Assembly: GCA_030867685.1 (NCBI GenBank)
Contig: JAQOWU010000007.1
Coordinates: forward strand, 2,480,001-2,544,000
Origin: Wickerhamiella versatilis
Taxonomy: Eukaryota
Direction: 5' to 3'
DNA: 64,000 nt
Part shown: piece by piece, positions 17,012 through 57,340 of the stretch
How the letters are laid out: the number at the start of each line of letters is the position of its first letter
Position numbering within the stretch: the first letter of the stretch is position 1
Translations under genes and position numbers: made by a program
The notes under the pieces: generated by a model
What the model was told of the DNA's origin: nothing
Seen by the model: the letters and a program-made list of their open reading frames with translations, nothing else
Database searches by the model: none

Positions 17012-20000
17012 CTAAAGTAGCAGGATTCCAGCAGCCACACTTAGTAGAAGTGCACTGAGCGGATTCGTCCTTCCTGCAGTATTTGCGATAGCTGGAACAC
17101 TGGAAGTTGTTGCAGTACCAACGGAAGTAGATTTACTAGGAGATTCAGAATCTGCTGAAGGTGCATTGCTTGAAGCAGCAATCGGACTAGACTCACTGTA
17201 AGTTTGAGACAGAGTCGCAGTGGTTACACTTGAAACATCAGGAAGCATGGATTCATTGGATTCAGAGGGCCTTGCAGAAGCAGTACCATGTGAAGCAGAG
17301 CTGGTTTCGGCGGTTGGTACACTGGTTGCAGCAGTCGGAGCAGCAGTCGGAGTTCCGGATGTACTTTGCCCAATTGTTAAGGATGTGGGACCAGAAACAG
17401 TGTAAGTAGATGAGCCATGGGTAAATGTGGTGGGTGAAGGACAGTAAGTGGTGAAGACAGTAGCTTCTGCTGTCTTTGTAGAGCCCAAACTCGCTGAATT
17501 ATTTTCCTCACTCTTACTCTCGGTACAATCGCACTCCTCTATAGACATTGTTGTTTCTTTTGTCACAGTGTAAATGGAAGAACCATGAGTGAAAGTAGTT
17601 GGCGATGGACAATACGTCGTGAAGTAGGTTGCATCTGCTGTTACCGTTTCACTGGTACCAGACACACTTGAATCAGTATTAATTCCAAACGAACTAGTAG
17701 GAATTGTTCCTGTGGAACCTAATTCTGTACCCGCAGTACCTGTATCCATAGCGCTAGTACTAGTATCACTCAACCCAGTACCAATAGCGCCAGAACTAGT
17801 GACACCTGGATTTGTACCGGTGGTATTAGTACCTCTGGTACTTGAACTAGTAAGGATCACACCTGAACCAGTAGCAATTGTTCCTGTAGAACCTGATTCG
17901 GCACCCGCAGTACCTGTACCCATAGCGCTAGTACTAGTATCACTCAACCTAGTACCAATAGCGCCAGAACTAGTGACACCTGGATTTGTACCGGTGGTAT
18001 TAGTACCTCTGGTACTTGAACTAGTAAGGATCACACCTGAACCAGTAGCAATTGTTCCTGTAGAACCTGATTCGGCACCCGCAGTACCTGTACCCATAGC
18101 GCTAGTACTAGTATCACTCAACCCAGTACCAATTGCACCAGAACTAGTGACACCCGGTTTTGTACCGGTGGTATTAGTACCTCTGGTGCTTGACCTGGTA
18201 ATCATCGCGCCTGAACTAGTAGGAATTGTTCCTGTAGCACCTGATTCTGTACCCATAGCATTAGTACTAGTATCACTCAACCTAGTACCAATAGCACCAG
18301 AACTAGTGACACCTGGATTTGTACCGGTGGTATTAGTACCTCTGGTACTTGAACTAGTAAGGATCACACCTGAACCAGTAGCAATTGTTCCTGTAGAACC
18401 TGATACTCTACCCGTAGTAGTTGACCCACTACCAGTGGCAACACTATAAGTCGAACTAATTGGTGCTGATATGAGTGTACTCTTCGAAGCAAGTGATGGA
18501 CTTAGATTGGAGCTCCAGCCTGAGACTTGTTGGGAAGCACTAGTGGAAAGACCCGGTATGAATGATCCTGAACCAGTGCCAGATATAGAAGGTGATCCAA
18601 TACTTCTGGAGGAACTCATAGATCCACTATAGGCAAATGGATCTTTACTCGACTCATGCTTGCTAGAAGAATGTTCAGTAGATGTATCAGTAGTAGTCAC
18701 GTTTTCGGTTACAGAACTCACACTGGGATTGACAGAGCCTGTAGCCGGAGTGCCTGTGGTGGAAGCTCCTTCAGCCGTTGACTTCTGACTGCTGCCAGTA
18801 GACGCAGAGGGTCCTGGCTTCAAAGAAGAAAATGACAGAGTCACGGTCCCTGAAGTAATAGGTGGACTATTGGACATTGTGCTGCTGAGTTCCGAACTCA
18901 CTTGCGAAAACGATGAGAGGCCGGTATTCGATCCAGCACCAGTATACGATGTGGAGGATGTGGAGCAGTCACCTGATGATCCTGTAATATCGTACCCGGA
19001 TATGTGATTCAACTTGTCAAACGGTAGCATACCGTTGATACTATCAATGATCTTGTTGAGGTCATTGATAGAATCTGAGGACGAATTTACCTCATCCCAC
19101 AACACACAGCAGGGACGGTTCGAGAGTCCACCGCTAACCTGAGTAATGGTATTCGATATTCCATTGGTTATTAGATTCAGAGCTGGCACAAGTGGTGCGA
19201 TCGCTTGAGAAACCCCAGAACTTTCAAGACCTCCTAAGAGTTGATTATCGATTTTCAGGAACTGGGAAAGGGTATTCAAGAACTCTGCCTGACTGCTATA
19301 ACTGATGCAATTAATGCTACCAGATGTACCTGTAAGGTCATTGAAAACTGATTCAAGCGAGTTGAGTTCATTGGGAAGGTCGAATATATTAATGCCTGAG
19401 TTGAAGGTATTAGCCGCAGCATCTACTGCTTTCTGCAGACTATCAATAATGTCGCCAAAACTCCCTTCATTGTCACACTGACAGCTTGAGGTGGCAGTAG
19501 GAACAACTACGTTAGAGCTAGTTGGACTCGTGAACTGAATGGTCGACGAGGCCAAGCTTGATATAGTGGTTGGGATACTACTGGCAATATTGCCTGAATC
19601 ACTGCTCGATGAGGCCAAGCTAGATAGAGTGTTGGAAATACTGCTGGTGCTATCACTTGATTCACCCCCTGAGGTATCACTGGCCATATTTTTTGAAGAG
19701 GTTGAGCCTGGTGTCGTGGTCGATCTTGATATAGTGGTTGAGATACTACTGGCAATATTGCCTGAATCACTGCTCGATGAGGCCAAGCTAGATAGAGTGT
19801 TGGAAATACTGCTGGTGCTATCACTTGATTCACCCCCCGAGGTATCACTGGCCATACTTGTTGAAGAGGTTGAGCCTGGTGTCATGGTCGAGATGCTGGT
19901 GGTTGCAGATGATGAGCAATCGCCAGATGATCCTGTAATATCGTACCCAGATATGTGATTCAACTTGTCAAACGGTAGCATACCATTGATACTATCAATG

Positions 20001-21427
20001 ATCTTGTTGAGGTCATTGATAGAATCTGAGGACGAATTTACCTCATCCCACAACACACAGCAGGGACGGTTCGAGAGTCCACCGCTAACCTGAGTAATGG
20101 TATTCGATATTCCATTGGTTATTAGATTCAGAGCTGGCACAAGTGGTGCGATCGCTTGAGAAACCCCAGAACTTTCAAGACCTCCTAAGAGTTGATTATC
20201 GATTTTCAGTAACTGGGAAATAGTATTCAAGAACTCTGCCTGACTACTATAACTGATGCAATTAATATTACCAGATGTACCTGTAAGGTCATTAAAAACT
20301 GATTCAAGCGAGTTGAGTTCATTGGGAAGGTCGAATATATTAATGCCTGAGCTGAAGGTATTACCCGCAGCATCTACCGCTTTCTGCAGATTATCAATAA
20401 TGTCGCCAAAACTCCCTTCATTGTCACACTGACAGCTTGAGGTGGCAGTAGGAACAACTACGTTAGAGCTAGTTGGACTCGTGAACTGAATGGTCGACGA
20501 GGCCAAGCTTGATATGGTGGTTGGGATACTACTGGCAATATTGCCTGAATCACTGCTCGATGAGGCCAAGCTAGATAGAGTGTTGGAAATACTGCTGGTG
20601 CTATCACTTGATTCACCCCCTGAGGTGTCACTGGCCATATTTTTTGAAGAGGTTGAGCCTGGTGTCGTGGTCGAGACGCTGGGGGCTGCTGACGATGAAC
20701 AATCGCCAGATGATCCTGTAATATCGTACCCAGATATGTGATTCAACTTGTCAAACGGTAGCATACCGTTGATACTATCAATGATCTTGTTGAGGTCATT
20801 GATAGAATCTGAGGAAGAGTTTACCTCATCCCACAACACACAGCAGGGACGGTTCGAGAGTCCACCGCTAACCTGAGAAATGGTATTCGATATTCCATTG
20901 GTTATTAGATTCAGAGCTGGAACAAGTGGTGCGATTGCTTGAGAAACCCCAGAACTTTCAAGACCTCCTAAGAGTTGATTATCGATTTTCAGGAACTGAG
21001 AAAGGGTATTCAAGAACTCTGCCTGGCTACTATAACTGATGCAATTAATATTACCAGATGTACCTGTAAGGTCATTGAAAACTGATTCAAGCGAGTTGAG
21101 TTCATTGGGAAGGTCGAATATATTAATGCCTGAGTTGAAGGTATTAGCCGCAGCATCTACTGCTTTCTGCAGACTATCAATAATGTCGCCAAAACTCCCT
21201 TCATTGTCACACTGACAGCTTGAGGTAGCAGTAGGAACGACTACGTTAGAGCTAGTTGGACTCGTGAACTGAATGGTCGACGAGGCCAAGCTTGATATAG
21301 TGGTTGGGATACTACTGGCGATATCACTTGATTCACCTCCCGGGGTATCACTGGCCATATTGGTTGAAGAGGCTGAGCATGCTGCTAATTGAATTATAGC
21401 TTGTACGAAGGCCTTCATTCGCACCAT
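17012..21427 (-). CDS. Large GPI-anchored cell-wall protein/adhesin with three Cys-containing helical repeat domains, a Ser/Thr/Gly stalk and two TTYCPSPTTFTHG (Ccw12/Sed1-type) repeats
   Basis: N-terminal signal peptide, C-terminal GPI signal ANTAGRTNPLSALLLSVAAGILLL, internal repeats visible in DNA and protein. Confidence 0.9.
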   Translation of the reverse strand: MVRMKAFVQAIIQLAACSASSTNMASDTPGGESSDIASSIPTTISSLASSTIQFTSPTSSNVVVPTATSSCQCDNEGSFGDIIDSLQKAVDAAANTFNSGINIFDLPNELNSLESVFNDLTGTSGNINCISYSSQAEFLNTLSQFLKIDNQLLGGLESSGVSQAIAPLVPALNLITNGISNTISQVSGGLSNRPCCVLWDEVNSSSDSINDLNKIIDSINGMLPFDKLNHISGYDITGSSGDCSSSAAPSVSTTTPGSTSSKNMASDTSGGESSDSTSSISNTLSSLASSSSDSGNIASSIPTTISSLASSTIQFTSPTSSNVVVPTATSSCQCDNEGSFGDIIDNLQKAVDAAGNTFSSGINIFDLPNELNSLESVFNDLTGTSGNINCISYSSQAEFLNTISQLLKIDNQLLGGLESSGVSQAIAPLVPALNLITNGISNTITQVSGGLSNRPCCVLWDEVNSSSDSINDLNKIIDSINGMLPFDKLNHISGYDITGSSGDCSSSATTSISTMTPGSTSSTSMASDTSGGESSDSTSSISNTLSSLASSSSDSGNIASSISTTISRSTTTPGSTSSKNMASDTSGGESSDSTSSISNTLSSLASSSSDSGNIASSIPTTISSLASSTIQFTSPTSSNVVVPTATSSCQCDNEGSFGDIIDSLQKAVDAAANTFNSGINIFDLPNELNSLESVFNDLTGTSGSINCISYSSQAEFLNTLSQFLKIDNQLLGGLESSGVSQAIAPLVPALNLITNGISNTITQVSGGLSNRPCCVLWDEVNSSSDSINDLNKIIDSINGMLPFDKLNHISGYDITGSSGDCSTSSTSYTGAGSNTGLSSFSQVSSELSSTMSNSPPITSGTVTLSFSSLKPGPSASTGSSQKSTAEGASTTGTPATGSVNPSVSSVTENVTTTDTSTEHSSSKHESSKDPFAYSGSMSSSRSIGSPSISGTGSGSFIPGLSTSASQQVSGWSSNLSPSLASKSTLISAPISSTYSVATGSGSTTTGRVSGSTGTIATGSGVILTSSSTRGTNTTGTNPGVTSSGAIGTRLSDTSTNAMGTESGATGTIPTSSGAMITRSSTRGTNTTGTKPGVTSSGAIGTGLSDTSTSAMGTGTAGAESGSTGTIATGSGVILTSSSTRGTNTTGTNPGVTSSGAIGTRLSDTSTSAMGTGTAGAESGSTGTIATGSGVILTSSSTRGTNTTGTNPGVTSSGAIGTGLSDTSTSAMDTGTAGTELGSTGTIPTSSFGINTDSSVSGTSETVTADATYFTTYCPSPTTFTHGSSIYTVTKETTMSIEECDCTESKSEENNSASLGSTKTAEATVFTTYCPSPTTFTHGSSTYTVSGPTSLTIGQSTSGTPTAAPTAATSVPTAETSSASHGTASARPSESNESMLPDVSSVTTATLSQTYSESSPIAASSNAPSADSESPSKSTSVGTATTSSVPAIANTAGRTNPLSALLLSVAAGILLL
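17700..18400. repeat. Coding tandem repeat, 4 units of 174/174/159 nt (about 58 aa, Ser/Thr/Gly stalk)
   Basis: tagtatcactcaacc recurs at 17761, 17935, 18109 and 18268. Confidence 0.9.
18960..21370. repeat. Three near-identical ~600-nt domain repeats plus repeated linkers within the adhesin
   Basis: Units start near 18960, 19911 and 20691 (spacing 951 and 780 nt); the protein unit CQCDNEGSFGDII...SGYDITGSSGDC occurs three times. Confidence 0.95.
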
Positions 21428-24287: not shown

Positions 24288-25292
24288 TTATAGACAGACA
24301 ACCTTTTTCATATAGCGTCTCCCTTCTAACATCTTGTGCTGACGCATATCAGCAAGCTTATAGGCAAAGTGCCAAAGGGTGTCAAAGAATATCAAGGGTA
24401 CCATATTGCCCTGAAATCGCTGATCTATACCACTGAGATCAAGCTCTTTAGCATCGAGTACAAGGATATTTTCGGTGGAGCCAAAGAGGTGTAGGAATCT
24501 CTCCGCTCTTTCCTCAAGCGGACGAGAGCGGTCTAGCCCCTTAAGCAATACAAACGCCCGATTCTCATCTAAGACCTCAAATGGACCATGGAAGAACTCA
24601 TTTGCATGAATAGCTTGGCTGTTAATCCATAGCATCTCCATCAATACACAGATAGAGAATGAATAAGATGCACCGTAATCCGCCCCACTTGCTAAAGAGT
24701 AGATAATATCTTCGTTAGCAAACCGTGGAGCATATTCAGCAAAAAGAGGGCTGAAGGTTTTTATTGCGCGATCAATGGCGGGTTGCAAAGCATGTATGCT
24801 GTCGGCTAAAGGCTGATTGAGATCCTCTCCCCCCGTCATTGAAACTAACCCCATAATCAGTTGATAAATACGCGAGTAATTGCTGTCTTTCGAGTCTATG
24901 GGGATTCCTGTTGTGTAATGGGCCTCAAATTCAATGACATGCTCTACTACATTAGCAAGTGGTGAGTCACTGTCCGCAGTAAACCCGATGGTGGTAGCCC
25001 CTATCTCCTTGGCAAATTGGGCAGCATCAGTCGTTTCCCTCGTTGTGCCTGTAGTGGAGCACAAAATCACCAGAGAATCTTCGCTAAAGACTTTTGGAGT
25101 AAGCGCAAGAAACTCTGCTGCGTTATAAACACTAGAGGCTACGTTACAATGTGTATCAAACAAGACCTTGGCCCCTTTCAGAACGGAAAGGGACCCACCA
25201 CAAGCAATGAGAAAAACATGATTCAGGGCTGAATATCTCAAAGCCTCTAATGTTGCGACGACTCTGTTGTCATAACTCGTAGGAAACGACAT
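24288..25292 (-). CDS. frlB: Bacterial-type fructosamine/fructoselysine-6-phosphate deglycase (double SIS domain)
   Basis: ACGGS, CSTTGTTRET, SICVLMEMLWI, IHANEFFHGPFEV and C-terminal RRYMKKV resemble Bacillus FrlB motifs (EYFHGPFE, RRYMWKVEY). 334 aa, intronless. Confidence 0.9.
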   Translation of the reverse strand: MSFPTSYDNRVVATLEALRYSALNHVFLIACGGSLSVLKGAKVLFDTHCNVASSVYNAAEFLALTPKVFSEDSLVILCSTTGTTRETTDAAQFAKEIGATTIGFTADSDSPLANVVEHVIEFEAHYTTGIPIDSKDSNYSRIYQLIMGLVSMTGGEDLNQPLADSIHALQPAIDRAIKTFSPLFAEYAPRFANEDIIYSLASGADYGASYSFSICVLMEMLWINSQAIHANEFFHGPFEVLDENRAFVLLKGLDRSRPLEERAERFLHLFGSTENILVLDAKELDLSGIDQRFQGNMVPLIFFDTLWHFAYKLADMRQHKMLEGRRYMKKVVCL

Positions 25293-25430: not shown

Positions 25431-26324
25431 ATGTCTCGTCCACCAAAAATTCTTGCCTTTGGCGATAATGTTGTCGACTGTTATAGCGATCGAAAATTGA
25501 TGTTTCCTGGTGGAAACGCTGTCAACCACTCAGTCTTTGCCCACCGTGCCGGGGCCGAAACTTTCTACGTGGGAAAAGTTGGAACCGATCGCGCAGGACA
25601 CCTACTGCATCAATCATTAGTAGATGAGGGTGTTGATACAAGTTTGATGCGGTTCGGTCCAACGACAACGGCATTTTGTTTGATCGAAACACATGATGGA
25701 GATAGGGTGTTTGTCGGATGTCATCTCGGAGACTCTATTATCGCACCAGGAAGAAAAGATCTTATGAAGCTTTCTGAATGTGATGCAGTGCATACGGGCC
25801 GATCAAGCCATATTGACGCGTGGATACCGACTTTTAGTAAATTAACAAAAGTTTCCTACGACCTTGCCACGGTTCATGAAGAGAAGCGTATAGCAGCAGT
25901 GGCGCCATTCTGTTTTTTGATGTCCTTCTCAGGTAGCAATTTGTCGTCAAGTTCCGCACAAGAACTTGCACAGTTTGCCGTTCGAAAAGGGAGTAAATGG
26001 AGCCTGGTAACTAGAGGAGAGCATAGTGCATTTCTAGTCAGCTCAGAGTCAGTTTTCGAAAAAAAACCATTGTCTATCAATGTGGTTGATACACTTGGTG
26101 CAGGGGATGCATTTATCGCCAATGTGCTTGTAGGGCTGTTAGCTGGGCAAGGGCATCCCAATGCTGTACTCGATATGGCGGCTCAAGCGGCGGCAAGCAC
26201 TTGTCAGGTTGCTAGTGCATTCGGTCATGGAGTACCGATAGATATCGATATATCGCAATCCATGAGTTTAGAAGCCGTATATGCTACTACTAAGGCAGTT
26301 CCGGGGCCCGCGCAGGTGCAGTGA
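25431..26324 (+). CDS. frlD: Bacterial-type fructosamine/fructoselysine 6-kinase (PfkB family)
   Basis: N-terminal GDNVVDCY..MFPGGNAVNHSVFA matches FrlD (GDNCVDIY..GGNAVNVAV). PfkB signature VVDTLGAGDAFIA. Adjacent to frlB. Confidence 0.88.
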   Translation: MSRPPKILAFGDNVVDCYSDRKLMFPGGNAVNHSVFAHRAGAETFYVGKVGTDRAGHLLHQSLVDEGVDTSLMRFGPTTTAFCLIETHDGDRVFVGCHLGDSIIAPGRKDLMKLSECDAVHTGRSSHIDAWIPTFSKLTKVSYDLATVHEEKRIAAVAPFCFLMSFSGSNLSSSSAQELAQFAVRKGSKWSLVTRGEHSAFLVSSESVFEKKPLSINVVDTLGAGDAFIANVLVGLLAGQGHPNAVLDMAAQAAASTCQVASAFGHGVPIDIDISQSMSLEAVYATTKAVPGPAQVQ

Positions 26325-42993: not shown

Positions 42994-43677
42994 TCAATAC
43001 AGCAAATTTATACTGCTCGTCAGGTTGTTAAGAGCGGACCCAACCTCGTCAATTTGGCCCCCAAGGGTTTCTTCAACAGTGGGTACAGATTTCAATGAGT
43101 CAAGTTCACTGACAACAGGCTTAACCTCCTCGGTAAGATTGTGAGAAAAAATATTAATTGGTGACTTTAACTCAGCCTGCTTTCCCCCATGGATTTTCGT
43201 AGTCAGAAGCTTCGCAACTTCTTTGATCAGTTGCTCATCAAGTTCTAGGAGCTTTTTCAGCTCGTCAAGGAATGGTGTGAAAACTGGCTCCAGCCCCGTA
43301 ACTGTCTGGTTTGCAAAGTCGAAACCGTCCTCAACAAGGCATTTCCATGGAGCACCGGTAATACTGGATAGGACATCCGAAAAAATACTTCCTCCCTCAC
43401 TCACAGAGTCTTTTACATCGTTCAACGCGCTAGTTGATTTCAATAGTTTAGAGATACACGTACTGACATCGCCAGATAAGCAAGTGGAATCACCAGTTAC
43501 AGTATCAATGATATCTGTCACATCCTTGACAATACCATTTATCTTGGGCAAAGAGTCTTGAAACTTATCCTCCACATTGCCAAAGAGCTGCTTAACGGTA
43601 TCCTGCGGCGGACACGACGAGCTGGCTGTACTCAGCGCTAAACAAAGGATAGCAGTATATCTCATGGAAAACGACAT
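42994..43677 (-). CDS. Secreted amphipathic alpha-helical protein of unknown function (paralog A)
   Basis: Signal peptide, 227 aa, 4 Cys in the mature part, heptad-like hydrophobic pattern; aligns with 44172..44897. Confidence 0.85.
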   Translation of the reverse strand: MSFSMRYTAILCLALSTASSSCPPQDTVKQLFGNVEDKFQDSLPKINGIVKDVTDIIDTVTGDSTCLSGDVSTCISKLLKSTSALNDVKDSVSEGGSIFSDVLSSITGAPWKCLVEDGFDFANQTVTGLEPVFTPFLDELKKLLELDEQLIKEVAKLLTTKIHGGKQAELKSPINIFSHNLTEEVKPVVSELDSLKSVPTVEETLGGQIDEVGSALNNLTSSINLLY

Positions 43678-44171
43678 GTTCGAGCAAATTATTTTACTAA
43701 TAAATATACTTGCTGCAGCTCGTTATCCTACATAGTAACAGAGGCTGTGTGCCGATCCTCGATCTTCTTCATACCAAGCCTGCATGAACATTTTTTCTAT
43801 GCAATGCTAGTAGATGACTCCACGAAAATTTGGATCTTTACGCGATCAGCTTCTCCCGTGCACTTGGAAGCGGCTTTCATTGCACATTCAGACAAACGCT
43901 ATTATGCGGGAGAAAATCGGTGCAGTAACTGGGTAAGGGTGCGTACACAAAACCTCGTGTGGACTAAGGACGTGTGCTGTCTGACCAGATAACAAAGCTA
44001 GATTCCTTGCAAAAACATATCATTTCAATGATATTTCATAAACTAGATCCTAGAATTTTTTGAGAGCTTTTCTGCCTTCGAGGAGCTGACGTTAATGGAA
44101 TATGATTTGCGGTGCATTTGTAATCAACATATACATATACATCAATAATCTCAGCATTCCGCTATTCCAAC

Positions 44172-44897
44172 ATGCTCAGAAATTTTGCTTATTGGAGCTT
44201 GGTCGTATCCATCATTGCTACTTGTGTAGTGGCGTCTCCTATTGTCGCGAATACCGAGGTCAAGCGTGGAAATTGCGATATCACCGACTCCATCAAAGGT
44301 ATCATCAGCGACCTGAAGAGTGACTTTGGCAAGGTCGTACCCATGATCAAGGACATTGGAGATGATTTGTACAAGGTTGCTAGTACGTTCTCTTCCGATA
44401 GTGGCTGTGCGACTGCACTTGTCACCTGCATTTCGACTATCGCTGAAGGCTACACAACCTGTGGCTCCCTTGCGGCATGCTCTTCTCTGCTAGGAAATAC
44501 CGGGTTTATTTCAACTATTACAGATTCGGTATCCAAGTCTACAGAAGTAGTCGGGGATGCCTTGAACTTGATAGGAGAGATTCCTTTGTCTTGTTTGTCT
44601 GATTCTGCAATCACCGCTATTTGGCCCGTGCTTGAGTCCACGCTAGGTCACGTTTCTAATTTTGGCAAGGGAGTCATCCATATTATCAATGCTGCCGAAA
44701 AGGCTGAGATATCATTGGCCAACACTGGCTTCAAAGTATTTGTGGACCATAGCACTGAAATCCTCGAGGATACGATCGATATTGCCAAACCGATTGTATC
44801 GCATGCTCCGTTTTTTAATACCACCCTAGTCAACTCTTTGAATGATCTCGAATTTGTTTTCGACTCATTGAAGAACGTAACAACCAGTGTACTGTAA
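44172..44897 (+). CDS. Secreted amphipathic alpha-helical protein of unknown function with a Kex2 KR site (paralog B)
   Basis: Signal peptide, propeptide SPIVANTEVKR, 241 aa; aligns with 42994..43677. Confidence 0.85.
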   Translation: MLRNFAYWSLVVSIIATCVVASPIVANTEVKRGNCDITDSIKGIISDLKSDFGKVVPMIKDIGDDLYKVASTFSSDSGCATALVTCISTIAEGYTTCGSLAACSSLLGNTGFISTITDSVSKSTEVVGDALNLIGEIPLSCLSDSAITAIWPVLESTLGHVSNFGKGVIHIINAAEKAEISLANTGFKVFVDHSTEILEDTIDIAKPIVSHAPFFNTTLVNSLNDLEFVFDSLKNVTTSVL

Positions 44898-52020: not shown

Positions 52021-52784
52021 TGGTATACTTGAGAGTCCTGGTGCTGTAAAGTTTCTGAGTCATTAACGCATTGTCGGCGCTTCATATGTTATAATTCGAT
52101 TATGTCATTGCCTAAGTATATCTAGGGTTGGGTTTTGTACCGAACTTACAGGTAGTAGCAAATATCAAGAATAGCAGATATGTAATTTGTACTAGGCAAA
52201 ACAGATCTAAGAATGCCACACCAACCCCCTTCAAATTTGCATACCCATATACCCGCTGCTCGATGCAGAGGGAAATAATTCCATGGATGGTACAGATGAA
52301 ATACCAAAAGTGATGGTATTGATTCCAGACAGAATAAGGAAAGATAATTCGACATGCACTATCTTTTTTGCCATCAAGTAAAGTAGATGTGATAATATTC
52401 TGGCTATTCCAGAAATCTTCTTTTTCGTATTTTTTTTACCTACGTGTTTACTATTAGTGCTCATAATTTCAGTTTAAAAGCCCAGTATCTGTTGTAGGGT
52501 CCGACGAGCTTTTGATGGACCTTGAAAAGCTGCATGAAGTTTGACTTCCACAACTAGTCGCACTTGTTATTATTACACCAACTCCTCAAAATTGACAACC
52601 TGAGCTTGCTCCTTTGCATTTTCCCGCCAGTCTCAGGTAATGATGTAGGATATAGATTTATAAACTATCGATGACCGTTGTTGAAAATACTTTTTTTTCT
52701 TCTTCTAGGGCGCGGTAATATAATATCCAAACAAATTCTACACACATAAGAGAAAAAAAGTCGACTATTCTTAAAATGCTTCTC

Positions 52785-55700
52785 CTATATCAAATTTAGA
52801 TGTTGCAAATCGACCATATATTTGGCGATTAGTGACTGATCAATGGTGGGGATGTCTTGAGTTGGCCCGATCTCGGCCTTCTTAACCGCCTCACGGAATA
52901 TGTCGGTGTTAAAAGTGGATCCACATTTCGGTTTCTCTGGCTTTTGATAATTGTGTAACAATGGCATTAACGATGCAGCTTGCAGCTTAGCTGGAAGGCT
53001 TCTTAAGCTGGTTTCAAATTGCTGCAACCACTCTGAGTACTTTGGAATCCGCTTGATACAGTGACCTACAGATATTAACCAGTCAACGTATTCATCCATC
53101 CCAATACCATCATCGTGACAGTTCATCACGTGGTATGTATTGAAACCTTTCTTTGAGGAGCCCAATTTAGTGATTGATTTTGCGACAAAATCAACCGGAA
53201 GCCCATCATAGTGAGCACGTTGGCGCTTACCGCCAGCATCCAGCTCATAAAATGAGTATGGTGCTATCCCGGTCACGACCAGGCTCAGGAGCATCCTGGT
53301 AAACATGTCATGTTCATTGATCTGGCCTAAGTACTTTGTACCTGCTAATATCATTCCACATCGAAAGACCGAAACAGGAAGCCCACATAGATCATGAGCT
53401 TCTCTAAGCAATACTTCACCTGCCCACTTACTGGTTCCATAGCCATTTGCGTAACTGTTGTCGATCTTCCGCAACGAGCTCATCTGTCGCACATCTCTGT
53501 TCTCGACAAAATCATTAGGTGACACTCCTTGGCCTACAACAACGGTGGAAACGTAGGTGAATGGCTTGATTTTTGATGTAATAGCTAATCGGATCAGTTC
53601 TGCGGTACCAACTACATTTGGACCGAAAAGTTCATAGTATGGAAGAACGTGGTTGACGAGTGCTGCCGAATCAACAATCTGGTCGACATCATGCGAGAGT
53701 CTCTGCCACGTGGGTTCGTCCAGACCTAGGTTTTCCTCAGATTTATCGCCGGCTAGCACCTCAAGATGGTTGTCGGCCAGCCTGTTAAAGTATTGTCGTA
53801 AATCATGATTACCCTTATCAAAAGAGCGGTATAATCGAGTTCGCGCTTCAGCCACGCTTTTTGCACGGACCAAGCAGATCACTTTCCCATCTACTTTCAC
53901 CATCTCCTCTAATAATTCCAGGGCGAGCTGGGATCCAAGGAAACCAGTTGCCCCTGTTAACAGAATGACCCGGGGTGGTTCCGGATCAGTCGGTGGTAAG
54001 AAGGAAGCGTTTGCCAGTGTAGCACTATCCATAAACCTGTCTAGTGTTAATTCTGAAGCCATCACCTCTTTATCGCCAGTAACATGAATATCTTCATACG
54101 TCGGTCGTGTACTGGATCCCCCAATATGCAGTTCGATGTAGTCTGTAATTGATTGAAGATTCGTGATCGGACTGGTGACCAATGCCACAGGTACTGAAAT
54201 ATTGAATATTTGACGCAAAATATTCACAAATTGCAAGGCTATCAGTGAATCTCCACCTAGTTCATTAAAAGTCGAGTCTGGTCTGGCATTCTCTGGATTA
54301 CCTAGGAGAGCTATAGCGGTGTCGATGACTGACTGCAACACAGTTGAACCTCGTGCCTGATTCTTCAAGTAATCAACGTTAATATTCTGTAAGTCGATTA
54401 TGTTGCTACCTTGGACATCTTCTGGTTTGACGTGGAGCTCTCGAAGGACATTGCGCAAGATCTTGCCTGTTGCACCCACAGGAATCTTTTCCGCGATGAC
54501 GCCACCTCCTGAAAGGCGTTTCTGGGATGATACTCTTTTGTTGAACCACTGGATAATGGGAATGATATCAGATTTATCCCGGAGAACCAAAAATGCTCGA
54601 GGAAGTTCGGTAGTCTCTGTGGAATCTAGAACCCCGATAACAGCCGCATCAATTACATTGGGATGGGTGACAAGGATACCTTCTAGTTCTGCTGGGGCAA
54701 CCTGATGGCCTTTTGACTTGATAAGCTCTTTTATGCGACCGACAATTTTAAATTGGCCAGTCTCATCGGCCACGGCTACATCCCCAGTTTTCAGCCAGCC
54801 TTCCGAGGTTTTCGTTTCAGCGGTGGCTTTTGGGTTGTTTAGATATCCCTTCATAATTTGTGGTCCGCGTAACCAAATTTCGCCAGACGCACCCAAGGGC
54901 ACATCATCACCAGTTTCAGGGCTAATTAGGCGCGCTTGCGTGCCCGGGATTGGCCATCCCACTGTATCTATGTCATACTCATCGCGAACAGCCCCTGTAA
55001 AAGTGAAAATTGTCTCTGAAAGCCCATACACCTGAATGATTTTTACATCAGGTATTCGTTTAGTCAATATCTCTCCGCTAGACCTAGACAAGGTGCCAGC
55101 CGATGATATGACATATTTAAGTTGTTCCTTAAACTTCGGATATAGGTCAACTAAGGGATCCTTACCGAGTACAAGTAGAATAGATGGAACTGTATAAATA
55201 ATGGCAACTCCATAATTTGAGCATCCTTGCAATATCTCCCCTAAATCAAATCGGTCGAACAGGACAACAGTCTTGCCCTGTACAACTGAACCCCATTGGT
55301 ACATGTGCAGCCCATAGATATGGCTTAATGGCAAAAAGGCGCCGACGACTAGATCATCATTTTCAGTGTAAGGAGCCCCACTTCCGCTAATTTGAAATGC
55401 ATGTTGAAGCAGATTATAGTGAGTAAGCTCAACTGCCTTCGGCAGCCCTGATGTGCCTGATGAAAAACACATAAGACCAGTGGCATCAAGTCCTACAGGA
55501 ACGGGATCAATTTCTTTAGCATCATCATTATCAATCAGGTTAAGGAGCCGTGGCACCAACTCGGGGTATTGGACAACCTCTATGTTATGTTCCACAAGCT
55601 TGCAGGCTTCAATGGCGGTAAAAGCATCATCAGCCAATATAGTCTTAGGCTGTGTCATTTGTAGATGGTGGGAAATCTCTGCTGAGTTGTACTGAACATG

Positions 55701-56006
55701 CACAGGGGCTATAACGGCACCCAGCCACTTCGTCGCATGATGTATGGCTGGTATTAAGATGTTGTTCCTGGCAATAAGCATCACCACATCCCCTTTGCTA
55801 ATTCCGAATTTTTCGTGCAATACGGCAGCTATCCTTGGAATAAGGCTTTTATGCTGGCCGAATGTGATTCCTTGACCGCTTATCCCATCTATAAAGGCTA
55901 ACTTGTTATGGTTGAACACAAATGGAGCAGTTGATAGTAGTCCAACTATGGAATTCAAGCAGCTAGGGATAGGTGGAAGGGCTTGAATTGCCTCGTATAC
56001 TTTCAT
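52785..56006 (-). CDS. NRPS-like carboxylic acid reductase (A-T-R): 4-coumarate-CoA-ligase-like A domain plus actinobacterial CAR-type carrier and reductase domains
   Basis: A domain: FSSGTSGLPK, QVYGLSET, GEIWLRGPQIMKGY, WLKTGD, RIKELIKSKGHQVAPAELE, GKILR. T domain: FNELGGDSL (Ser codon 54246-54248). R domain: LLTGATGFLG, AALVNHVLPY, YANGYGTSKWAGEVLLREAHDLCGLPV, RQRAHYDGLPV. Confidence 0.95.
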   Translation of the reverse strand: MKVYEAIQALPPIPSCLNSIVGLLSTAPFVFNHNKLAFIDGISGQGITFGQHKSLIPRIAAVLHEKFGISKGDVVMLIARNNILIPAIHHATKWLGAVIAPVHVQYNSAEISHHLQMTQPKTILADDAFTAIEACKLVEHNIEVVQYPELVPRLLNLIDNDDAKEIDPVPVGLDATGLMCFSSGTSGLPKAVELTHYNLLQHAFQISGSGAPYTENDDLVVGAFLPLSHIYGLHMYQWGSVVQGKTVVLFDRFDLGEILQGCSNYGVAIIYTVPSILLVLGKDPLVDLYPKFKEQLKYVISSAGTLSRSSGEILTKRIPDVKIIQVYGLSETIFTFTGAVRDEYDIDTVGWPIPGTQARLISPETGDDVPLGASGEIWLRGPQIMKGYLNNPKATAETKTSEGWLKTGDVAVADETGQFKIVGRIKELIKSKGHQVAPAELEGILVTHPNVIDAAVIGVLDSTETTELPRAFLVLRDKSDIIPIIQWFNKRVSSQKRLSGGGVIAEKIPVGATGKILRNVLRELHVKPEDVQGSNIIDLQNINVDYLKNQARGSTVLQSVIDTAIALLGNPENARPDSTFNELGGDSLIALQFVNILRQIFNISVPVALVTSPITNLQSITDYIELHIGGSSTRPTYEDIHVTGDKEVMASELTLDRFMDSATLANASFLPPTDPEPPRVILLTGATGFLGSQLALELLEEMVKVDGKVICLVRAKSVAEARTRLYRSFDKGNHDLRQYFNRLADNHLEVLAGDKSEENLGLDEPTWQRLSHDVDQIVDSAALVNHVLPYYELFGPNVVGTAELIRLAITSKIKPFTYVSTVVVGQGVSPNDFVENRDVRQMSSLRKIDNSYANGYGTSKWAGEVLLREAHDLCGLPVSVFRCGMILAGTKYLGQINEHDMFTRMLLSLVVTGIAPYSFYELDAGGKRQRAHYDGLPVDFVAKSITKLGSSKKGFNTYHVMNCHDDGIGMDEYVDWLISVGHCIKRIPKYSEWLQQFETSLRSLPAKLQAASLMPLLHNYQKPEKPKCGSTFNTDIFREAVKKAEIGPTQDIPTIDQSLIAKYMVDLQHLNLI

Positions 56007-57079
56007 TGTCTGAGTTTCGTGTTGACGTTTCGTTAAATATATAACTCATAAGGAAAAATAAGCATCAATTTATTATTATTATTAATAAGTGTAAATGAGC
56101 AATAAATCTGAATATTATACTCAGATCTCATGCATGTCGCACATGATCTTCGGATGACCATATGGCAACATCTATGTAAAATGACGCTAATACATTTAAA
56201 TACTATAGAGCCATTTCACATGCTTCCAGAGGCATAGTGCTCCATGCTTGTATGTCATTTCGTCAACAACTTCCCATCTCTAAGGTCGGATTCGCGTATT
56301 GCGCTTTCACGCTTAGCAGCAGCCTATTTTTGTTATGTAATAAACTGAGCAATTTCCACTAATCTATAATGGTTCGCTTCTGTGAGGTTTCTATGCACTG
56401 ATATTAGCTTTTGATAGCCTGAGAACCTGATTCACACCTGTATACGCTATCTTATATGTTTCAACCCCCAAAAATGTCTCATACTATTATTCAGCTGGTA
56501 ACAAGGGTTGGGCCACCCCGTCCACCATACCCCTGGAGACTTTGCAATGTCGAACCTATCCACAATCAAATTGAGAGGTCTTCCAACTTGATTGCCATCC
56601 GAGATCCTGCTATCATTAGATGCAAAGCAGATGCAATTGCTGCCAAATCAGCTGCTGCAATAGAAACTAATGTCTCAAAATTATCTAAGCTGTCTCAAAT
56701 TACAAGCGCAGCCGATGCGGAGGTGGGACGAGGCCCTGTTGAGGTTCTATGTGCAATATCATAGTGACAAAACACCGAAATTAGGTTTTTAGGTGGAATG
56801 TCTATTAGAAGTGGAATTGTTGGATCTCTATAGCAGAGATTCCGGAAAGGAGCCCCTTGGTTGGTCAGATAATCACTTTATCTAAAAATAATATAATTAC
56901 CAATCGGTATCTATGAAATTAATGAAATGGAGCATGAGCGATGGTCTTCTCGAAGCTATACCAGCCTAGAAACCTAAAAGCTTCAAATTCTAGCAATGCT
57001 GTTTTATGGTTGACTTGATTTTTCAGGTATCATAAATACAGTATTTAAATGGTCTAGACCAGTCATCGCTCGTTTGCAA

Positions 57080-57340
57080 ATGCAATTCGCCACTCTTTGG
57101 ATTCTCGCATCCGCCGCACGTGCTGCCCAATCGACGTTCGATCCTCGAGGGTCTTGGCAATATATTTCATACCATTCAAATTTGGCCATCTTGCTGTGCC
57201 TTTTTTTAATAATAATGGGCTATCTTGAATTGTGCAACCAATCTCAGGTAGCCAAGCTGAGGATGCGTTTTATAAGTCTGGAACGTTACCGATTCCGGCA
57301 CTTCTTTGGAAGAAGAGAAATCATACTATATCTCCTGTAG
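57080..57340 (+). CDS. Possible small single-pass membrane protein
   Basis: ATG at 57080; signal-like MQFATLWILASAARA, one TM segment, basic tail. Confidence 0.35.
   Translation: MQFATLWILASAARAAQSTFDPRGSWQYISYHSNLAILLCLFLIIMGYLELCNQSQVAKLRMRFISLERYRFRHFFGRREIILYLL

Follow-up and report, generated by a model that had tools for sequence, protein, structure and literature searches.

A yeast ligase joined to a mycobacterial-type carrier and thioester reductase in Wickerhamiella versatilis, with glycine in place of the bacterial aspartate gate

A carboxylic acid reductase (CAR)-like gene of the yeast Wickerhamiella versatilis was shown, by sequence comparison and trees, to be a hybrid of a yeast ligase and horizontally acquired T and R domains of mycobacterial type. 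It is this hybrid build, and not the glycine (Gly) found at the aspartate (Asp) gate of the reductase domain, that is the unusual part of the encoded protein, hereafter P0001. The gene lies on the minus strand of the 64,000-nucleotide stretch analysed here (hereafter the window, to which plain coordinates refer), and its features are as follows.

52785..56006 (-), chimeric A-T-R carboxylic-acid-reductase-like ORF (P0001), intron-free, 1073 aa, without internal stop
54408..56006 (-), yeast Aal/4CL/luciferase-like adenylation (A) domain, aa 1 to ~533, assigned from PDB matches, identity and tree
54372..54410 (-), fusion junction, approximate, aa ~533-545, placed by alignment A1
54111..54374 (-), CAR-type lead-in helix and T (PCP) domain, aa ~545-632, assigned from diagnostic columns
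52788..54110 (-), mycobacterial-type thioester reductase (R) domain, aa 633-1073, 64% identical to mycobacterial CARs
53346..53369 (-), VFRCGMIL motif, aa 880-887, read from the translation of P0001
53355..53357 (-), Gly884 codon GGA, equivalent to Asp984 of MmCAR and Asp998 of SrCAR
52762..57169 (-), 4.4-kb duplicated segment (the gene and ~1.2 kb upstream), with a copy on contig C4 at 87% DNA identity

Pfam placed AMP-binding at residues 33-389, AMP-binding_C at 440-515, PP-binding at 560-624 and NAD_binding_4 at 683-945, and P0001 has the A-T-R domain order of type I CARs. The A domain, in contrast, is not that of a CAR. The best PDB matches of residues 1-530 were plant 4-coumarate-CoA ligases (4CL) and luciferases, and the best named database matches were standalone yeast ligases, the nearest named relative being that of W. 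sorbophila. The domain is 47% identical to a standalone ligase of the same genome (L005) as against 21-22% to CAR A domains, and the bacterial inserts specific to CAR adenylation domains are missing. Adenylation motifs SSGTSGLPK, PLSH, YGLSE and GKIL are all intact. In a quick tree of 40 rows, the fused A domains nested among yeast ligases with PTS1-like ends, away from bacterial ligases. Such ligases are known from Yarrowia, in which the Aal proteins are 4CL-like, carry PTS1-like ends and activate fatty acids (PMC9925530). To judge from the tree, the A domain of P0001 probably belongs to the family of these peroxisomal ligases (Yarrowia Aal1-10 and the 4CL-like ligase of W. sorbophila), an assignment made via W. 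sorbophila and other yeast ligases with PTS1-like ends rather than via the Yarrowia Aal sequences. Unlike these ligases, the A domain of P0001 is fused to T and R domains and lacks a PTS1-like end.

In alignment A1, similarity to yeast ligases stops near G533 and similarity to CARs starts near residue 545, and the junction falls just before the point at which standalone ligases end in a PTS1-like tripeptide. P0001, being fused rather than standalone, terminates in NLI. A single 10.8-kb contig of DNA run X2, which is possibly the source sample, bridges the junction. The A domains of two other fused proteins of this genome, L003 (G000:C8) and L004 (G000:C7), grouped with the standalone L005 (G000:C8; SH-aLRT 97), to which they are 60% identical, and those of P0001 (L001), L002 and P0242 formed a separate lineage. 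With the A domains split into two lineages, the fusion may have happened a second time, or an A domain may have been exchanged later. A 4CL-like A-T-R protein of Nostoc, P0312, was considered as kin of the yeast fusion and rejected, its R domain being 26% identical and its A domain grouping with bacterial ligases. In the cluster of P0312 (Nostoc, Scytonema and Rhizonema), a 4CL-like ligase of bacterial type is fused, independently of the yeast case, to a T domain and a different thioester reductase, a convergent architecture in cyanobacteria.

The remainder of P0001 is of bacterial affinity. Over residues 545-1073, identity to mycobacterial CARs is 59-63%; among the best 120 of 5430 T-R matches, 119 were bacterial-type CARs, and nearly all the named ones among the matches listed belonged to Mycobacterium or Mycolicibacterium. 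The T domain carries the GGDSL motif with Ser587 (54243-54257), and the R domain carries TGATGFLG and the triad Thr821/Tyr856/Lys860, which corresponds to Thr921/Tyr956/Lys960 of MmCAR minus exactly 100. Both the CAR-type T domain with its GGDS Ser and the R domain with TGxxGxxG and Thr/Tyr/Lys are present in P0001, and the NRPS-type T domain and module context are absent. A structural model of the T-R part, built from a 94-row alignment, reached a pLDDT of 95.8 and a TM score of 0.95 against the CAR PCP-R structure 5msv; an AlphaFold prediction of the whole protein, made with 11 aligned rows, had low confidence in the R domain (mean pLDDT 62, pTM 0.48) and was set aside. Type I actinobacterial CARs (5mso/5msu, 5msc, 5msp/5msv) thus resemble P0001 in domain order, T-R sequence (50-63% identical), fold, catalytic triad and carrier Ser. 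They differ from it in having Asp984/998 where P0001 has Gly, and P0001 differs from them in its 4CL/Aal-type A domain without CAR inserts and in its yeast host.

The affinity of the T-R part within the mycobacterial reductases is less uniform. Seventeen of 25 diagnostic columns of the T domain were CAR-like, 2 NRPS-like and 6 neither, whereas 6 of 13 diagnostic columns of the R domain were NRPS-like, with a CAR:NRPS split of 6:6. In trees made from subsets of 39 and 48 rows with the switch column removed, the five yeast T-R sequences came out as a single clade (100/99) that grouped with CAR and NRPS reductases of mycobacteria. This clade fell outside the NRPS clade in the maximum-likelihood trees, a grouping of yeast and NRPS sequences not being rejected (AU p = 0.31), and it joined no sampled Gly-bearing CAR. 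P0001 scored 858 bits with the model NF041592, below the cut-off of 1300, with the best stretch at 514-1073. By its sequence, P0001 is CAR-like in its predicted working, yet it is outside type I CAR by membership under NF041592. A scan of GTDB with an alignment of yeast T-R sequences only gave 0 confirmed loci from 100 pattern matches.

The original prediction had located the motif VFRCGMIL, with Gly884 at 53355-53357, at the Asp switch of CARs. Both points were confirmed: the motif lies in the intact 1073-aa ORF with GGA on the minus strand, and the phmmer alignment to MmCAR Asp984 and SrCAR Asp998 is free of gaps. Against PDB sequences, Gly884 aligned with FRCDM of M. marinum CAR 5mso (Asp984), FRSDM of 5msc (Asp984) and FRSDM of S. 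rugosus CAR 5msp (Asp998), these residue numbers being counted along the phmmer alignment rows. The position had been proposed earlier by counting from the C-terminus, and the position itself was right; the count was off by one (189 residues after Gly884 versus 190 after MmCAR Asp984), so that counting was rejected as proof and an alignment is needed to place the residue. The same GGA codon occurs at the switch in 4/4 intact paralogs of the genome, Gly is also present in the relatives P0002, P0390, P0391 and P0242, and a contig from run X2 (possibly the source sample) spans the codon with no alternative letter. A sequencing slip is ruled out, as paralogs, relatives and the X2 contig all carry Gly. 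The Asp of the 984/998 gate is accordingly absent from P0001, although Asp itself is not universal among type I CARs.

From this Gly, a natural four-electron enzyme that reduces acids through to alcohols had been predicted. The Asp-to-Gly variant of S. rugosus CAR, attributed to Gahloth in 2017, is said to have gained modestly in aldehyde-reductase activity only. The premise holds in part, as Gly takes away the Asp gate that has been proposed for bacterial CARs (PMC8024701); the step from Gly to alcohol is weak and found no support. Fungal CARs carry Gly at the Asp-switch site, e.g., G872 of NcCAR (PMC5826065), and Gly occurs in all known NRPS R structures, aldehyde-releasing ones included, in a source that also states that the control of reduction extent in thioester reductases is still unclear (PMC8024701). 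Measured against acid reduction, the Gly-bearing NcCAR reduced aldehydes at 1% (benzoyl) and more than 40% (octanoyl), and the Asp-bearing MmCAR at 16% (benzoyl) and 66% (octanoyl), the ratios being strongly dependent on substrate (PMC10168641). A natural four-electron enzyme does not follow from Gly alone, since Gly is also found in aldehyde producers and NcCAR over-reduces less than MmCAR. The product of such reductase domains has been described as hard to predict from sequence (bioRxiv 10.1101/2023.05.23.541938).

The genome itself offers two Gly-bearing controls, both distant. Its Lys2 orthologue (TIGR03443, above cut-off), 29% identical, carries RPG at the equivalent position, and the product that Lys2 releases is a semialdehyde (PMC10510592). 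An A-T-R-R protein, 32% identical, has RLG in its first R domain; by its architecture it is probably glycine betaine reductase, which uses two R domains for two reductions (PMC10510592). The gene for the latter is located at G000:C3:392500-396400 (L128 2006-5884), beside an amadoriase-type-oxidase-like gene. The aldehyde-making controls with Gly are all remote from the query, at ~17-32% identity. Among natural Gly domains of known chemistry, the nearest on a matching scaffold is the terminal reductase of M. tuberculosis Nrp (Nrp-R; 4dqv/4u5q), which carries the same RCGMI and is a four-electron reductase (PMC8024701). It and other mycobacterial NRPS R domains are ~57-58% identical to the R domain of P0001 and share RCGMI, DSAA and HDDG with it; P0001 differs from the NRPS reductases in lacking condensation domains and in its CAR-like T domain. 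The fungal CARs of types II-IV (NcCAR, 8aep) are, like P0001, eukaryotic A-T-R acid reductases with Gly, but they constitute a separate lineage, with R domains ~17% identical to that of P0001 in a structural alignment. Gly alone is therefore ordinary and is not a marker of alcohol formation, and since Gly at the gate is already in print, the original prediction as written is largely ordinary as well.

Among 73 diverse full-length CAR-like representatives, we found Asp in 27, Gly in 19, Ser in 15, Asn in 6, Thr in 4, Ala in 1 and Pro in 1; these were taken from the best 150 representatives at 50% clustering (1100-1220 aa, T-R identity at least 33%), their CAR status being deduced from length and identity. 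The nearest bacterial CARs, in contrast, all had Asp (119/119 among the matches listed), as did the metagenome loci that cover the site (28/28, of 38 loci). Long NRPS R matches listed (n = 120, a redundant mycobacterial set) had Gly in 72, Asp in 47 and Ser in 1, and Gly was rejected as a discriminator between CAR and NRPS because of the 47 with Asp. A pattern scan of GTDB, pre-selected for the Gly motif and hence giving no frequency of Gly, yielded 60 loci, of which 20 had an A domain of CAR type, 33 were of NRPS type and 7 were unclassified. Full-length CARs with Gly were found there in M. szulgai, M. angelicum, Sciscionella marina and several Streptomyces. In the tree, such proteins branched at three separate points among the mycobacterial-clade CARs that have Asp; at two of these points the sister, with strong support, was an Asp protein. 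The Gly CAR of Sciscionella marina (L079), for example, has the Asp-bearing P0003 as its sister. No description of bacterial Gly-bearing CARs was found in the literature searched.

The loci of Gly-bearing type I CARs noted are L074, L082, L079, L078, L115 and L120, from M. szulgai, M. angelicum, Sciscionella marina and other mycobacteria, and the change from DPAA to DSAA seen in the yeast proteins is common to those of M. szulgai and M. angelicum. At this DxAA position, Ser occurred in 9/9 yeast rows and 66/71 Gly NRPS rows and Pro in 159/169 Asp non-NRPS rows, the rows being redundant and related, so that the split is no independent test. The only columns that co-varied with the switch in mycobacterial NRPS R domains were the neighbouring Ser/Cys and two other, weak ones.

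Four intact fused copies, on three contigs, were found among 17 matches in the genome, all within ~110 kb of a contig end. Relative to P0001, the copy on C4 is 88% identical, and those on C8 and the second on C7 are 53% identical. Between close pairs, dN/dS for the A/T/R domains was 0.29/0.46/0.22 and 0.21/0.21/0.12, the T domain having few changes; with values well below 1, the fused copies are under purifying selection. The four relatives with Gly named above are fused and full-length and come from public assemblies; P0242, 55% identical, is distinct from all four copies here and so most likely belongs to another genome. RNA runs labelled with the same species, three in number, gave 12, 0 and 3 reads, all 95-99% alike, which is no gauge of expression. 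Degraded fragments with stops were also noted, one of an R domain at G000:C7:166082-166450 (L012) and one of an A domain at G000:C4:53558-53716 (L015), which suggests turnover of further copies.

Sequence and trees show that a yeast of Wickerhamiella/Starmerella (W/S)-clade type acquired a mycobacterial-type CAR gene horizontally, and that the adenylation domain of the latter was replaced by the yeast's own Aal/4CL-like acyl-CoA ligase, the peroxisomal tail being lost on fusion. From the intact motifs, the putatively cytosolic enzyme would activate fatty or aryl acids by adenylation, pass the acyl group to the phosphopantetheine arm of Ser587 and use NADPH to reduce the thioester at Thr821/Tyr856/Lys860, with Gly884 removing the Asp gate. 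As Gly is a common residue of thioester reductases and recurs in type I CARs, aldehyde is most likely the main product. We put the probability at about 0.6 that P0001 mainly turns acids into aldehydes and that, as in other CARs, it reduces these further to alcohol more slowly and to an extent set by the substrate. In the cell, the last step would probably fall to host dehydrogenases, whichever residue is present. Against this reading stand the nearest CARs with Asp only, the match to the four-electron Nrp-R, the 6/13 NRPS-like columns of the R domain and the distance of the controls.

The alternative is a dedicated four-electron (2+2) R domain like those of mycobacterial NRPSs, converting acids to alcohols, with Gly884, Ser780, Val798 and His964 as an adaptation. 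Gly is fixed in all four paralogs and in P0242, RCGMI is shared with Nrp-R, and the yeast R domain has NRPS-like residues, including the invariant Ser at the DxAA position; Gly may also have been selected, given that the nearest bacterial CARs uniformly have Asp while the yeast copies keep Gly over long branches. We nevertheless regard this as unlikely, because Gly is found in aldehyde producers, MmCAR over-reduces more than NcCAR despite its Asp (PMC10168641), and the residue fails to separate CAR from NRPS. Similarly doubtful is its fuller form, in which P0001 would be a new one-protein acid-to-alcohol reductase, made by placing the yeast's own fatty/aryl-acid ligase on an acquired T-R, possibly twice with two ligase paralogs, and by retuning the R domain from two- to four-electron chemistry through the same four residues. 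The origin of Gly is a matter apart, and compatible with either chemistry. Its inheritance from the bacterial donor, either a Gly CAR or a CAR with an R domain recombined from an NRPS, in which case it would tell nothing about adaptation in yeast, comes to slightly less than an even chance: Mycobacterium, Sciscionella and Streptomyces include species with Gly CARs, and both the even split of the R-domain columns and the AU test accommodate it, but the yeast clade groups with no sampled Gly CAR and the most similar CARs among the matches listed all have Asp.

Two further explanations concern how, or whether, the fusion works. The 4CL-like domain might make acyl-CoA that the fused R domain reduces directly, the T domain being largely bypassed. 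The A domain does descend from CoA ligases rather than from carrier-loading enzymes, small N-acetylcysteamine thioesters serve as substrates of CAR R domains (PMC10168641), and a search for a Lys5-type PPTase picked up 0 candidates, which does not show absence. Still, the GGDSL Ser is kept in 5/5 aligned yeast lineages, the T-domain dN/dS values (0.21 and 0.46, from few changes) point to constraint, and PPTases are present in the genome (EntD-type, Fas2 and AcpS-type), of which Lys2 needs one, so that we hold a bypass to be improbable. An assembly artefact or a decaying gene is largely refuted, and we give it hardly any weight. Degraded fragments of both halves exist and the RNA reads are uninformative on expression, but the intact copies on three contigs, the full-length fused relatives in public assemblies, the low dN/dS and the contig across the junction all speak against it. 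An acid-to-aldehyde reductase stays our preferred reading.

No description of the chimera was found in the literature searched, a search with most subscription journals outside its scope; term searches of the main text and supplements of PMC13376923 gave no match to it, although tables there may list genes by identifiers alone. The Asp-gate model rests on bacterial CAR structures. The yeast protein and the bacterial Asp/Gly sister pairs are natural variants on a near-identical scaffold, and reciprocal swaps between them can therefore test the model. The build of the chimera suggests, too, that the T-R part of a bacterial CAR can be supplied by a CoA-ligase-type domain, which bears on the engineering of CARs by domain swaps.

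Other features of the genome were noted in passing. At 24288-25292 (-) of the window, a SIS-domain gene is divergent from a PfkB-kinase gene at 25431-26324 (+); the pair resembles bacterial fructosamine deglycase and kinase (frlB and frlD). Contig C1 (G000:C1:795000-805000; L024, L025, L014, L009) carries a bacterial-type enterobactin gene set in operon-like order, comprising an isochorismatase, an EntD-type PPTase, an NRPS, a chorismate-binding enzyme, an adenylation enzyme and an SDR, among which putative EntE-, EntA- and EntF-like ORFs were named from their sequences; this set, together with the W. sorbophila relative of the A domain, points to a host of the Wickerhamiella/Starmerella clade. 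Two small proteins that look secreted and match no clear Pfam family lie at 42994-44897 of the window, and the pair is duplicated along with the reductase neighbourhood at G000:C8 ~104000-105800 (67-69% DNA identity). A Ser/Thr-rich adhesin-like protein of 1471 aa, with internal repeats and a GPI-like end, is encoded at 17012-21427 (-) of the window, and related sequence occurs near the second C7 paralog.
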